A stretch of DNA of 15,621 bases, from NCBI GenBank assembly GCA_040289515.1, contig PSLI01000043.1, positions 1 to 15,621 on the forward strand. The letters are read 5' to 3'. The translations under genes were made by a program, and so were the position numbers. The notes beneath the pieces are model-generated. The model was not told where the DNA came from, ran no database searches, and saw only the letters and a list, made by a program, of their open reading frames with translations. Positions 1-2,830 of the stretch are shown in pieces; the first letter of the stretch is position 1, and every line of letters starts with the position of its first letter. Origin of the DNA: Candidatus Sysuimicrobiota bacterium. GTDB lineage: Bacteria > Sysuimicrobiota > Sysuimicrobiia > Sysuimicrobiales > Sysuimicrobiaceae.

Positions 1-141
1 TACCGGAACAGGGCCTTCGATCTCGCCGTGGTGGTAGACGTGCCCGAACCGCCTTCTGGAAACCCCGAAGATTGGCTCGGCATTGACCTCGGGATCGTCA
101 ACATCGCCACCGATTCGGAGGGGATAATCCGTGATATCTGA
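1..141 (+). pseudogene. tnpB: Truncated IS200/IS605-family TnpB (5' part outside window); ends just after the RuvC-I motif
   Basis: Frame +1 reads YRNRAFDLAVVVDVPEPPSGNPEDWLGIDLGIVNIATDSEGIIRDI* with TGA at 139-141. LGIDLGIVNIATDSEG is a typical TnpB/Cas12f RuvC-I segment. Not in the ORF track because it has no start codon in the window. Confidence 0.85.
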
Positions 142-535
142 AACCGAAAAGGCATATGCTGCTGGACTTTTCCATGGAGAGGGATCCATTAGTATAACCC
201 CACCCAGAAAGAGACGCGGATATGGGCTTATGGTATCGTTGACCCAGACTTCTCCCGAAGCCGTTCGTCGACTGCACAGGATATGGGGAGGAAGTTTATG
301 CAATGAGACACGACATTTAAAAAATCGTCCCTCACTCACCGTATGGCGCTGGATACTGCACACTCGTGCGGCAGCCAAGTTCTTACAGGACATTCTGCCG
401 TACCTCACCCTTAAAAGGTCCCAAGCCGAGGTTGCCATTGAATTCCAAAGCCGCAAATGTAACGGACGCCGGTTGACAAAGGATCGTTTGATAGAAGACG
501 AGTCATATCGTCGACGACTGCACGCTTTACGGTAG
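131..535 (+). CDS. Single-motif LAGLIDADG homing endonuclease (I-CreI-like), 134 aa
   Basis: YAAGLFHGEGSI matches the LAGLIDADG helix (I-CreI YLAGFVDGDGSI). VSLTQT and FLQDILPYLTLKRSQA resemble I-CreI FQVTQK and FLTQLQPFLKLKQKQA. GTG start with GGAGG at 117-121. Hand-counted GC is about 50%. Confidence 0.88.
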   Translation: MISETEKAYAAGLFHGEGSISITPPRKRRGYGLMVSLTQTSPEAVRRLHRIWGGSLCNETRHLKNRPSLTVWRWILHTRAAAKFLQDILPYLTLKRSQAEVAIEFQSRKCNGRRLTKDRLIEDESYRRRLHALR

Positions 536-585
536 CGAGCAGGGCCGTCGTCATGCGGCCGTACGCGGCGGGCCAACCAGCCTAG
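532..585 (+). pseudogene. tnpB: Residual 3' tail of tnpB (segment following RuvC-III)
   Basis: Frame +1, the same frame as the 5' tnpB piece, reads VASRAVVMRPYAAGQPA* (TAG 583-585). This resembles the N-I-A-x-R-A-x-V-x-x-P C-terminus of TnpBs. GC returns to about 67%. Confidence 0.65.
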
Positions 586-641
586 CTGCAAGCCCCTGGC
601 TTTAGCCATGGGGTTCATGACAGTTCCACCTCCCGGCCCGT
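536..641 (+). ncRNA. Putative TnpB omegaRNA (reRNA): scaffold to ~621 plus flank-derived guide ~622-641; 5' boundary uncertain
   Basis: Overlaps the tnpB 3' tail and the right-end hairpin, as established for TnpB omegaRNAs. Expression and boundaries are inferred only. Confidence 0.5.
589..621 (+). mobile_element. IS200/IS605-type right end with subterminal hairpin
   Basis: CAAG-CCCCTGGC-TTTA-GCCA-T-GGGG-TTCATGAC. CCCC 593-596 pairs with GGGG 610-613, and TGGC pairs with GCCA around a TTTA loop. This follows the familiar caagcccc...tttag...ggggt..tgac/tcac pattern of tnpB element ends. The exact terminal base is inferred. Confidence 0.75.
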
Positions 642-1499
642 GATGCGGCGGAACACCTCCAGGTACCGGGCCCGTAACTCGGCCACCAGGTCCGAGGGCA
701 GCTGCGGCCCGGGTGGGGTCTTGTCCCAGCCCACGCGCTCCAGGTAATCCCGCAGCAGCTGCTTGTCGAAGGGCTCCAGCTGGCCTCGGGCGTACGCCTC
801 CCGGTCCCAGTAGCGGGACGAGTCCGGGGTGCCCACCTCGTCGATGAGCACCAGCTCCCCAGCTACCAGGCCGAACTCAAACTTGGTGTCCGCCAGCACC
901 AGGCCCCTTGATGCCACGTACTCCGCCAGGTGGCAGTACAGGCGCAGGCTGGTCTCGCGCAGGCGCTCCGCCAGTTCGGGGCCCACCGTGGCGCACAGGG
1001 CCTGGAAGGTTACGTTCTCGTCGTGGCCCGCCTGCTGCTTGGTGGCGGGGGTGAACAGGGGCTCCGGCAGCCGCGCCCCGGGCTGCAGCCCCGGGGGCAG
1101 CTGCACCCCGCACACGCTCCCGGTCCGCTGGTACTCCTTCCACGCGGATCCAGTCAAGTAGCCCCGCACCACACACTCGAAATCTACCCGGCGGGCCCGG
1201 CGCACCAGCATGCTGCGGCCCCGCAGGACCACCAGGTGCGCCTCCTCTAGGCCCGCGGCCTGCGCCACGTCCCGTAGGTCGGTGCTCACCAGGTGGTTGG
1301 GCACCTGTCGGGTGCGCGCAAACCAGAAGGCCGACAGCTGCGTGAGGACCTTCCCGCGGTCCGGAACGGGGGTGGGTAGCACCACGTCGAAGGCGCTGAC
1401 GCGGTCCGTGGCCACCATCAGCAGGTGGTCGCCTAGGTCGTACACGTCCCGCACCTTGCCCCGACAGAACAGGGGCAGCGCCAGCGCGGTCTCCCTCAC
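615..1499 (-). CDS. purC: SAICAR synthetase
   Basis: GKVRDVY, DRVSAFD, ECVVRGYLTGS, DTKFEFG, DEVGTPDSSRYW and DKQ motifs. GTG start at 1499 overlaps the purB stop, with SD AGGAGG. Confidence 0.96.
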   Translation of the reverse strand: MRETALALPLFCRGKVRDVYDLGDHLLMVATDRVSAFDVVLPTPVPDRGKVLTQLSAFWFARTRQVPNHLVSTDLRDVAQAAGLEEAHLVVLRGRSMLVRRARRVDFECVVRGYLTGSAWKEYQRTGSVCGVQLPPGLQPGARLPEPLFTPATKQQAGHDENVTFQALCATVGPELAERLRETSLRLYCHLAEYVASRGLVLADTKFEFGLVAGELVLIDEVGTPDSSRYWDREAYARGQLEPFDKQLLRDYLERVGWDKTPPGPQLPSDLVAELRARYLEVFRRITGREVELS

Positions 1500-2830
1500 C
1501 GCACCACCTCCTGACGGCGGGGCACTCCCACGCGCTCCAGGATCTCGTCCGCGTAACGCAGGTAGGGGGTCGGGTCCAGGCACTCCCGCAGGCGGGCCTC
1601 GTCCGAGGCCTGCCGCACCTCGGGGTCCAGCAGCAGCTTCTGCACCAAGGCGTCCGGGGCCGGCGCGGGGTCTTGCCACACCGCCGCCGCGGCGCGCTGC
1701 ACTGCCTTGTATGCCGCCTCCCGGGACATCCCTCGCTCCACCAAATGCAGCAGCACCCGATGGGAGTACACCAGGCCCCCCGTGCTCTCCAGGTTCCGCC
1801 GCATACGGTCCGGATCCACCCGCAGCCCGGCCACCACCTGACGGGTCTTGCGCAGCATGTAGTGCAGCAGCGCGGTGGCCCCCGACAGCACGATGCGCTC
1901 GTTGGAAGAGTGGGTGATGTCCCGCTCGCCCCACAGGGCCTGGTTCTCCAGCGCCACCACCGCGCAGCCGCGCAGCATGCGGCTCAGGCCCACCACCCGC
2001 TCGCTCAGGATGGGGTTGCGCTTGTGCGGCATCGCGGAAGACCCCATCTGCCCCTCCGCGAAGGGCTCCTCCAGCTCCCGGATTTCCGAGCGCTGCAGGG
2101 ACCGCACCTCGGTGGCGATGCGCTCCAGGCTGCCCGCCACCACCGCCAGGGCCGTGAGGTACTGGGCGTGTCGGTCCCGCTGGATCACCTGGGACGAGGC
2201 GACCTCCGGCGCCAGCCCCAGCCGCTCGCACACGTACGCCTCCACCTGCGGGGGCAGGTGCGCGTAGTTGCCCACCTCCCCGGACAACTTGCCTACCCGC
2301 ACGGCCTCCCGCGCCTGCTGCAACCGCACCCGCGACCGCTCCAGCTCCGCGATCCACGTGGCCACCTTGCAGCCGAAGGTGATGGGTTCCGCCTGGACCC
2401 CGTGGGTGCGGCCGGCCATGAGGGTGTGGCGGTGGCGATCCGCCAGCTTCCGCACGGCCCGGAGCAACCCGTCCAGCTCTTCCAAAAGCAGGTCTGCGGC
2501 CCGCACCAGGAGCACGCAGGTCGCGGTGTCCACTACGTCCGAGGAGCCCAGACCCCGGTGGAGGTAGCGGGCGTCGTCGCCCAGGTCCTCGGAGACCACC
2601 CGCAGGAAGGCCACCACGTCGTGGTGGGTCTGCTGCTCCTCCACCTCCCGCACCCGCTCGGGGTCCGGCACCCGGGCCCGGTCCCGCAGCCTCCGCGCCA
2701 CCTCCGCGGGCACCCATCCCAGCTGCGCCTGCGCCTCCACCGCCAACAGCTCCACCTCCAGCCAGGTGGCCAGCTTGGCGCGCTCGCTCCACAGCTGCGC
2801 CATCTCCGGCGTGGTGTACCGGGGGATCAC
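1496..2830 (-). CDS. purB: Adenylosuccinate lyase
   Basis: MIPRYTTPEM N-terminus, HDVVAF, GRTHG and GSSAMPHKRNP. GTG start overlaps the purA stop, with SD GGAGG. Confidence 0.95.
   Translation of the reverse strand: MIPRYTTPEMAQLWSERAKLATWLEVELLAVEAQAQLGWVPAEVARRLRDRARVPDPERVREVEEQQTHHDVVAFLRVVSEDLGDDARYLHRGLGSSDVVDTATCVLLVRAADLLLEELDGLLRAVRKLADRHRHTLMAGRTHGVQAEPITFGCKVATWIAELERSRVRLQQAREAVRVGKLSGEVGNYAHLPPQVEAYVCERLGLAPEVASSQVIQRDRHAQYLTALAVVAGSLERIATEVRSLQRSEIRELEEPFAEGQMGSSAMPHKRNPILSERVVGLSRMLRGCAVVALENQALWGERDITHSSNERIVLSGATALLHYMLRKTRQVVAGLRVDPDRMRRNLESTGGLVYSHRVLLHLVERGMSREAAYKAVQRAAAAVWQDPAPAPDALVQKLLLDPEVRQASDEARLRECLDPTPYLRYADEILERVGVPRRQEVVR

Follow-up and report, generated by a model that had tools for sequence, protein, structure and literature searches.

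The DNA analysed here is a stretch of 15,621 nt (the window) that starts at a contig end, and its positions 1-621 form the right part of a 1,160-bp, tnpB-only IS200/IS605 element that sits between purS and purC. The first-pass annotation, made from the window alone, had proposed an IS200/IS605-type element and an extension upstream. This extension led us to an overlapping contig, C43, which shares 158 bases with the window at 2 differences and supplies purL-purQ-purS, the element's left end (C43:39589, directly after TCAC) and an open tnpB N-terminal half of 188 aa that starts at C43 39702; no tnpA occurs within the element as joined from C43 and the window. The host purC (SAICAR synthetase; 615-1508, minus strand) takes its last Ser codon and stop (615-620) from the element's right end. 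The insertion reads TCAC/element/AGTTCC without target duplication, as IS200/IS605 insertions do. The left ends of relatives likewise follow TCAC, and the empty site TCAC/AGCTCC is present in all five congeners (of seven) for which a purC match was obtained, purC and purS overlapping there. Subterminal hairpins lie at both ends: the left end matches those of relatives, and the right-end hairpin has 97.6% of its cells paired in an alignment of 17 alleles. With the TCAC site, both hairpins, tnpB and a right-end omegaRNA in place, the proposed class stands, and more specifically an IS1341-type (tnpB-only) element has been inserted at TCAC between purS and purC.

At its left end (L001:9304-9340, that is, C43:39589 onward) the element gives purS a GGAGG and an ATG on the minus strand, inside a 15-bp tandem duplication; purS and purC may both survive the insertion. 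A promoter search of the left end and the tnpB N-half turned up nothing sigma-70-like. The genome of origin, 96.7% complete, holds no other tnpB match, and a Y1 tnpA that would confer autonomy in trans was not found in it: there are two Y1 matches (L209, L210; G000:C14, C22), and L210, the one checked, is a REP-associated tyrosine transposase. A 74-base contig from run X1, at a depth of ~1,190, joins a left-end hairpin directly to the omegaRNA/right end (window 544-621); it is a very abundant miniature element, and its start coincides with the predicted omegaRNA start.

The right end carries a predicted omegaRNA scaffold (543-621, plus strand), which comprises a first stem (543-548/555-560), a pseudoknot between GTCATG (550-555) and CATGAC (616-621), the right-end hairpin (591-615), intact as claimed at first pass, and the terminal TGAC (618-621). 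It is 93% identical to the omegaRNA of an endonuclease-free allele, L041. Across 17 alleles, the same ones from which the structure was drawn, 95.7% of cells are paired and covariation reaches 0.327, against 0.111 after shuffling and at most 0.069 after sliding; together they support a compact omegaRNA in which two stems are joined by the right-end hairpin and by a pseudoknot that shows compensatory changes. The predicted fold is therefore the structured right-end omegaRNA with a 3' pseudoknot that goes with an active TnpB. No RNA record is listed for this stretch, a negative without bearing on its expression. Placed by analogy with ISDra2 (PMC10097598), the predicted guide is the flanking purC DNA at 622-637 (plus strand), and its predicted target is the empty site TCAC/AGTTCC...; the first 7 guide bases match no TCAC-flanked site in the genome.

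A LAGLIDADG gene in a truncated tnpB

Window positions 1-120 (plus strand) encode the 3' part of the tnpB N-half, the end of WED and then RuvC-I, with the catalytic Asp codon at 85-87. Frame 1 reads ...LGIDLGIVNIATDSEGIIRDI, running on into the insert (121-141, plus strand) as GIIRDI and ending at a stop at 139-141. The orphaned C-terminal tail of tnpB, ASRAVVMRPYAAGQPA, follows in frame 1 at 535-585 (plus strand), with its stop at 583-585. Compared with four intact relatives (74-80% identity), ~480 bp of tnpB are gone and ~415 bp are present instead; the alignment stops at residue 183-185, leaving RuvC-I alone, and the bridge helix, RuvC-II, zinc finger and RuvC-III are absent. The protein accordingly has neither the complete RuvC D-E-D triad nor the bridge helix and zinc finger of an active TnpB. 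A RuvC-I motif soon followed by a stop, a tail back in the original frame and the loss of these four parts had all been read from the letters. All three hold, and alignment to full-length tnpB, which the first-pass annotation had recommended, placed both junctions.

Window 1-138 on its own matches OrfB_IS605 (E 4.7e-4) and guided_TnpB (E 0.002) below the curated cut-offs, but over 185 aa the complete N-half shares 76% identity with an intact TnpB that itself scores 188 bits on guided_TnpB, and 14 of the 17 tail residues agree with the C-terminus of an intact TnpB. There are suggestive, though not decisive, hints that the N-half is drifting. In comparisons with six relatives, intact or partial, its dN/dS is 0.11-0.20; intact pairs give 0.08-0.12. 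Of the 96 columns that are conserved in 90% of 60 intact relatives, 8 are broken in the window allele, a level that 3 of the 60 reach, with changes at conserved columns that include R57P, L114P, G146R and Y149D; among the truncated alleles, 5 of 9 polymorphic sites are in columns that 58 or more of the 60 share.

The insert holds a single-motif LAGLIDADG endonuclease gene (HEG) of the I-CreI/I-MsoI type, 134 aa, at 131-535 (plus strand), where the first pass had placed a LAGLIDADG ORF of that length; it overlaps the truncated tnpB ORF at 131-141. Window 131-532 scores 22.3 bits on LAGLIDADG_3 (E 1.6e-4; cut-off 22.5), and a profile built from LAGLIDADG homologues matches I-MsoI (1.8e-10) and I-CreI (1.5e-8), a homology over one domain. 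Both assignments that the first pass had staked on HMM searches thus hold by way of homologues, the 76%-identical TnpB and the I-MsoI/I-CreI profile, with the piecewise window matches below cut-offs. The hand-counted GC contents (~61, ~50 and ~67%) were also accurate: computed values are 0.608 (1-120), 0.499 (131-535) and 0.674 (536-621), with 0.709 in the rest of the window, and the ORF is an outlier because tnpB of this family has 0.56-0.63. The insert consists of the ORF and ~10 nt in the window, and of the ORF and ~55 nt at the other loci where a HEG occupies this site (site A). No credible Rfam match, of the kind that would indicate an intron-encoded HEG, was found in window 1-1500 or in 9 loci.

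In the motif helix, D-G-[DE]-G, position 15 (173-175) is His, against Asp in 56 of 57 homologues. The retained Glu17 (179-181) aligns with the second acidic motif residue of I-CreI/I-MsoI, which we take to be catalytic. The window's endonuclease is probably damaged by D15H; a D15Y change occurs in the site-A homologue L124, and our literature search found no paper on the effect of changing the motif Asp.

At the 5' junction, GGAGG(GG) (117-123, plus strand), tnpB codons meet a putative ribosome-binding site of the HEG. Intact proteins read Ser-Asp-Gly here (39 of the 40 closest), and other HEG copies carry a ribosome-binding site at the equivalent of this GGAGG, which is the likely microhomology of a deletion; such a deletion would explain why the HEG retained its start. 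The 3' junction zone spans 517-533 (plus strand), with tnpB-derived sequence from 533, inside the Ile codon of the parental motif A-R-N-I-A-S-R that is present in P0294. A hairpin at 518-542 folds at the place of the parental palindrome (H0), the last HEG codons pairing with tnpB-derived bases, and its re-formation may reflect chance, capture microhomology or selection. The idea that HEG-bearing alleles generally rebuild the upstream hairpin from HEG codons was set aside, as the fold forms in the window and is inconsistent in ten other loci.

An assembly chimera would suit a feature at the start of a contig, 2 mismatches in the contig overlap and a 3' junction that no contig from 4 runs spans. 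Against this, a Logan contig from run X1, possibly the source sample, spans the 5' junction, and 8 protein records from four sources (NCBI, ENA, JGI and Logan; the C43 protein included), 97-99% identical, end in the same junction peptide, DSEGIIRDI, with both variants of the 2-base difference represented among them. For the 3' junction, support comes from 15 other loci at which a homologous gene runs into the same tail of tnpB. Because the truncation is common to 8 records, we give an assembly chimera practically no credence. In each of these 8 records the truncated frame is open, a count that the clustering of records tilts towards intact frames.

Homologous loci and the tnpB/omegaRNA seam

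Metagenomes were scanned with 13 aligned close homologues; of the 156 stretches confirmed, the best 80 were kept. Fifteen of these 80 encode proteins 51-65% identical to the window protein, the other 65 being at most 43% identical. All 15 closest loci run into a tnpB tail and right end, with the HEG at the seam between RuvC-III and the omegaRNA, a figure biased by a query alignment drawn from homologues already tnpB-like at their tails. They represent 9 distinct flanks, six of them (L130-134, L166) being near-copies at one site. Zinc-finger/RuvC-III sequence lies upstream of the HEG in 11 of the 15, and in the five least decayed of these 11 the tnpB stop comes ~13 codons past the RuvC-III Asp and is followed by ~55 nt and then the HEG. 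One locus, L127, has an open TnpB frame with RuvC-I, RuvC-II, zinc finger and RuvC-III (191 bits on guided_TnpB); it is truncated at its 5' end and filled 23% of the tree columns. Other site-A copies have deletions or frameshifts of their own (L128, L130-134, L137, L168). The closest single-domain homologue, P0003, ends in RAAVIPPDAAALAG, the exact C-terminus of a TnpB of another lineage (L047). The tie to tnpB rests on the located loci, seven sister proteins of the same 95-support clade having no contig context. The search elsewhere for truncated tnpB with LAGLIDADG, as proposed at first pass, thus yielded HEG and right end at 9 flanks and the window's own breakpoint in none of the best 80 of 156 loci. 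The first-pass wording that the nuclease lobe was "replaced" is right in that the middle of tnpB is missing, but misleading in that zinc-finger/RuvC-III sequence still stands upstream at 11 of 15 loci.

Beyond these, 50 of the best 80 of 156 loci show no tnpB C-terminal remnant or tail beside the gene, and in 15 of the best 80 other LAGLIDADG lineages occupy a second tnpB site (site B), before the zinc finger; G186 carries two copies of such lineages there. This second site lies between the post-RuvC-II helix (..YKAE) and the zinc finger, so that TnpB is split in two, and it is used by at least two LAGLIDADG lineages (L135, L149, L150, L155, L175, L192, L196, L204, L205 and others); in L149-type alleles its flanks look pseudo-palindromic by eye.

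Genome searches with the endonuclease alignment matched only the genome of origin among 94 of the phylum, one of 169 genomes (with two site-B copies), two of 401 (with no tnpB match adjoining) and none in two further sets (0/151 and 0/5). The HEG was absent from all 67 genome loci, and no HEG-type C-terminus was seen among the 120 closest full-length proteins. Among phages, 39 records matched the endonuclease, at 30-36% identity among the 20 matches listed, and a tnpB zinc-finger/RuvC-III remnant lay beside the gene in 0 of 20 viral loci; a viral scan with P0026 gave no match, and there was no plasmid match. A word-indexed protein search with the endonuclease found nothing, and homologues came from an exhaustive search, whose top match, the 3,796-aa repeat protein P0002, was discounted as an artefact of its repeats.

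The site-A endonucleases are under purifying selection: dN/dS among six of them is 0.07-0.20 over 15 pairs. Of the two ORFs for which the first pass had suggested this measure, the HEG is thus constrained, and the N-half has the values given above beside those of intact pairs. The window N-half groups with one HEG-free tnpB set and the other HEG-bearing tnpBs with another, a single clade of HEG-bearing tnpBs being rejected at p-AU 2e-6 (4 versus 24 rows in a quick tree, the 4 including the partial L127). For the RuvC-II/III part, each of four tested HEG-bearing copies is 79-91% identical to some HEG-free allele, compared with 69-81% between one HEG-bearing copy and another, and the omegaRNAs of five other HEG-bearing copies are closest to that of the HEG-free L066 (86-93%). 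Repeated gain of the HEG at one site is the simplest reading, the alternative being repeated precise loss.

In ISDra2 (PMC10097598), TnpB without residues 376-408 still cleaves, as does the complex when the omegaRNA is deprived of its 5' region; the required parts of the two barely overlap, and the scaffold is bound by WED and RuvC jointly. Since the first omegaRNA stem begins at 543, ten bases past the 3' junction, and the dispensable regions of ISDra2 meet in this way, the insert lies at the seam between tnpB and omegaRNA. In 8 of 13 HEG-free alleles this seam scores 8/9 as an inverted repeat, a score equalled at no more than 3 of ~1,050 gene positions, and in 2 of the 13 it is weak (5/9 and 6/9). 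Homodimeric LAGLIDADG enzymes cut pseudo-palindromes of ~22 bp, so the seam palindrome of HEG-free alleles is the predicted and, from its sequence, a plausible target of a homodimer. It also covaries as an RNA hairpin, with 5 of 8 pairs altered on both sides, and an endonuclease is therefore unnecessary to explain it. The hairpin may matter for RNA processing; if it is needed for that of the omegaRNA, the insertion is not harmless.

Probable parasitism of tnpB and rival readings

Taken as a class, the arrangement is real and recurrent. Its components, an IS1341-type element with a free-standing HEG of the I-CreI type, both belong to familiar kinds, and we consider it probable that the HEG parasitises tnpB at a tolerant seam and that the window copy later suffered a deletion. 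Of the three alternatives offered by the first-pass annotation, parasitism by a free-standing HEG is thus the one favoured, on the strength of 15 loci with the gene at the same seam and of their 9 flanks. The gene sits between the RuvC-III helix and the omegaRNA, as seen at the window's 3' junction and at the 15 loci, and the lineage would most likely spread by intronless homing: a homodimer would cut the ~22-bp palindrome of a HEG-free tnpB seam, and repair from a HEG-bearing copy would transfer the gene. If ISDra2 is a guide, only the dispensable C-terminal tail of TnpB would be cut off and the omegaRNA core would stay whole, so that the host element could keep its RNA-guided homing and carry the HEG to new sites; L127 retains the full catalytic triad despite a HEG at the seam. 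In the window copy, a later deletion joined at the HEG's GGAGG would have removed tnpB from the bridge helix through RuvC-III. The missing nuclease lobe is best explained by such a later event because zinc-finger/RuvC-III sequence persists upstream at 11 of 15 loci; as no undeleted parent of the window allele was found among the 67 genome loci and the 120 closest full-length proteins, it is also possible that the HEG replaced the middle of tnpB in one step. What is left would be a fixed, decaying relic with no active TnpB, no tnpA and a probably damaged endonuclease, in a genome that offers no target allele.

To a further reading we give slightly less than even odds: these would be working dual-nuclease IS elements with two nested homing cycles, and the LAGLIDADG lineage would be a specialist of RNA-guided transposon nucleases. 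It would recognise in DNA form the palindrome that tnpB maintains as an RNA hairpin directly before the omegaRNA, and insert at the single seam where both the catalytic triad of TnpB and the guide scaffold are spared. TnpB would then cut transposon-empty sites and the LAGLIDADG dimer endonuclease-free tnpB, and the window would represent a later, deleted stage of such an element.

An unlikely though not negligible rival is that the HEG is a passive passenger, which entered tnpB by illegitimate recombination, was purged from other sites, cuts an unrelated target or none, and spread through transposition and gene conversion. The seam is structurally the tolerant point, most homologues lie elsewhere (the 50 loci noted above), and HEG-bearing alleles are rare in genomes (the genome of origin alone among 94, and 0/151), as this would predict. 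However, insertions at this seam occur in two tnpB clades, the HEG needs a function to be under purifying selection, and tolerance is no explanation for the other LAGLIDADG lineages found at 15 loci in a destructive nuclease-domain site. Still less is to be said for a two-part RNA-guided system or a TldR-like repressor, in which the 188-aa REC/WED fragment with its omegaRNA either recruits the LAGLIDADG protein or itself blocks transcription. Although the truncated frame is open in 8/8 records and overlaps the HEG at 131-141, the omegaRNA core is intact and the N-half dN/dS is still 0.11-0.20, the RuvC helices that bind stem 1, stems 2/3a and the pseudoknot in ISDra2 (PMC10097598) are absent here. 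Like TldR repressors as described in bioRxiv 2023.11.30.569447, the window allele is a TnpB derivative without an active RuvC beside an intact guide scaffold, and some TldRs lacking the zinc finger and C-terminal RuvC are reported there to bind targets. Yet the same text describes TldRs as retaining the RNA-binding interface, whereas here the bridge helix and RNA-binding RuvC helices are gone too, the transposon ends are kept, and neither a retained RNA-binding fold nor a guide match at a TAM-flanked promoter was found. With the breaks at 8/96 conserved columns, the 5/9 polymorphic sites on conserved columns, no TCAC-flanked 7-base guide match in the genome and a breakpoint found at 0 of the best 80 of 156 loci, we regard this second alternative of the first pass as highly unlikely.

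The remaining alternative, a functional takeover in which the endonuclease stands in for TnpB and secures the element by cutting the empty purS-purC site, draws on an element fixed at a conserved operon junction and on the empty site in 5/5 congeners with purC found. It fails because HEG-bearing relatives sit at 9 other flanks and a protein-guided enzyme cannot be retargeted with every jump. A 2026 review (PMC13565253, section 6.3) treats such retargeting as implausible and holds classical endonucleases incapable of a transposon's restorative homing. Many of the relatives keep the TnpB nuclease half and the window's motif Asp is changed to His, and we judge a takeover extremely improbable.

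Enzymes of the I-CreI type come from rRNA introns. The window protein resembles I-MsoI, I-CreI and I-CvuI (PDB 1m5x, 1bp7, 5a72) in having one motif, ~135 aa and a profile match over most of the domain, but it has no surrounding intron, its host is a transposon nuclease gene, and the near-invariant motif Asp is His. Like tnpB-only (IS1341-type) IS200/IS605 elements, for which ISDra2 TnpB and its omegaRNA serve as the reference (PMC10097598), the element has hairpin ends, an insertion 3' of the tetranucleotide TCAC and no tnpA, and its tnpB goes with an omegaRNA at the right end, where the pseudoknot pairs with the terminal bases. It differs in having lost ~480 bp of tnpB and the catalytic triad and in bearing a second nuclease gene at the seam. 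Free-standing phage HEGs (T4 Seg/Mob), described in PMC13565253 as intron-free and thought to spread by cutting a conserved gene, are similar in both respects; here, in contrast, the HEG is inside the coding sequence of a multicopy, mobile and dispensable RNA-guided homing nuclease gene. IStrons (PMC10690162) likewise combine an IS605 element with another selfish element in one chimera, but here the group I intron is absent and the partner inside tnpB is an endonuclease gene alone. The available text of PMC13565253 makes no mention of a HEG nested in tnpB, and a literature search of the accessible full texts returned no description of one.

If parasitism is the right reading, protein-guided homing endonucleases parasitise the RNA-guided homing nucleases ancestral to Cas12, and one cause for broken tnpB copies is at hand. 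The insertion point independently marks the boundary between needed TnpB and needed omegaRNA, in a compact family with an ~80-nt scaffold and a TCAC motif, and yields small (~135 aa) meganucleases with a predicted target. As the window copy is probably dead, this value lies in the intact relatives L125 and L127.

Several loci show further insertions. At L125:22-3000, one tnpB carries three nuclease genes: the site-A endonuclease and, at RuvC-II, a 257-aa LAGLIDADG_3 ORF and an opposite-strand HNH/Endonuclease_7-like ORF. At L166:264-2698 the site-A HEG is interrupted by ~2 kb with another tnpB on the opposite strand. Two LAGLIDADG ORFs with similar end peptides break an apparent phage capsid gene at L023:2213-3486, an arrangement that we take to suggest group I introns. 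The decayed tnpBs of L084 and L090 (~2620-2660) share the same short palindromic insertion at the same codon, which is probably REP-like.
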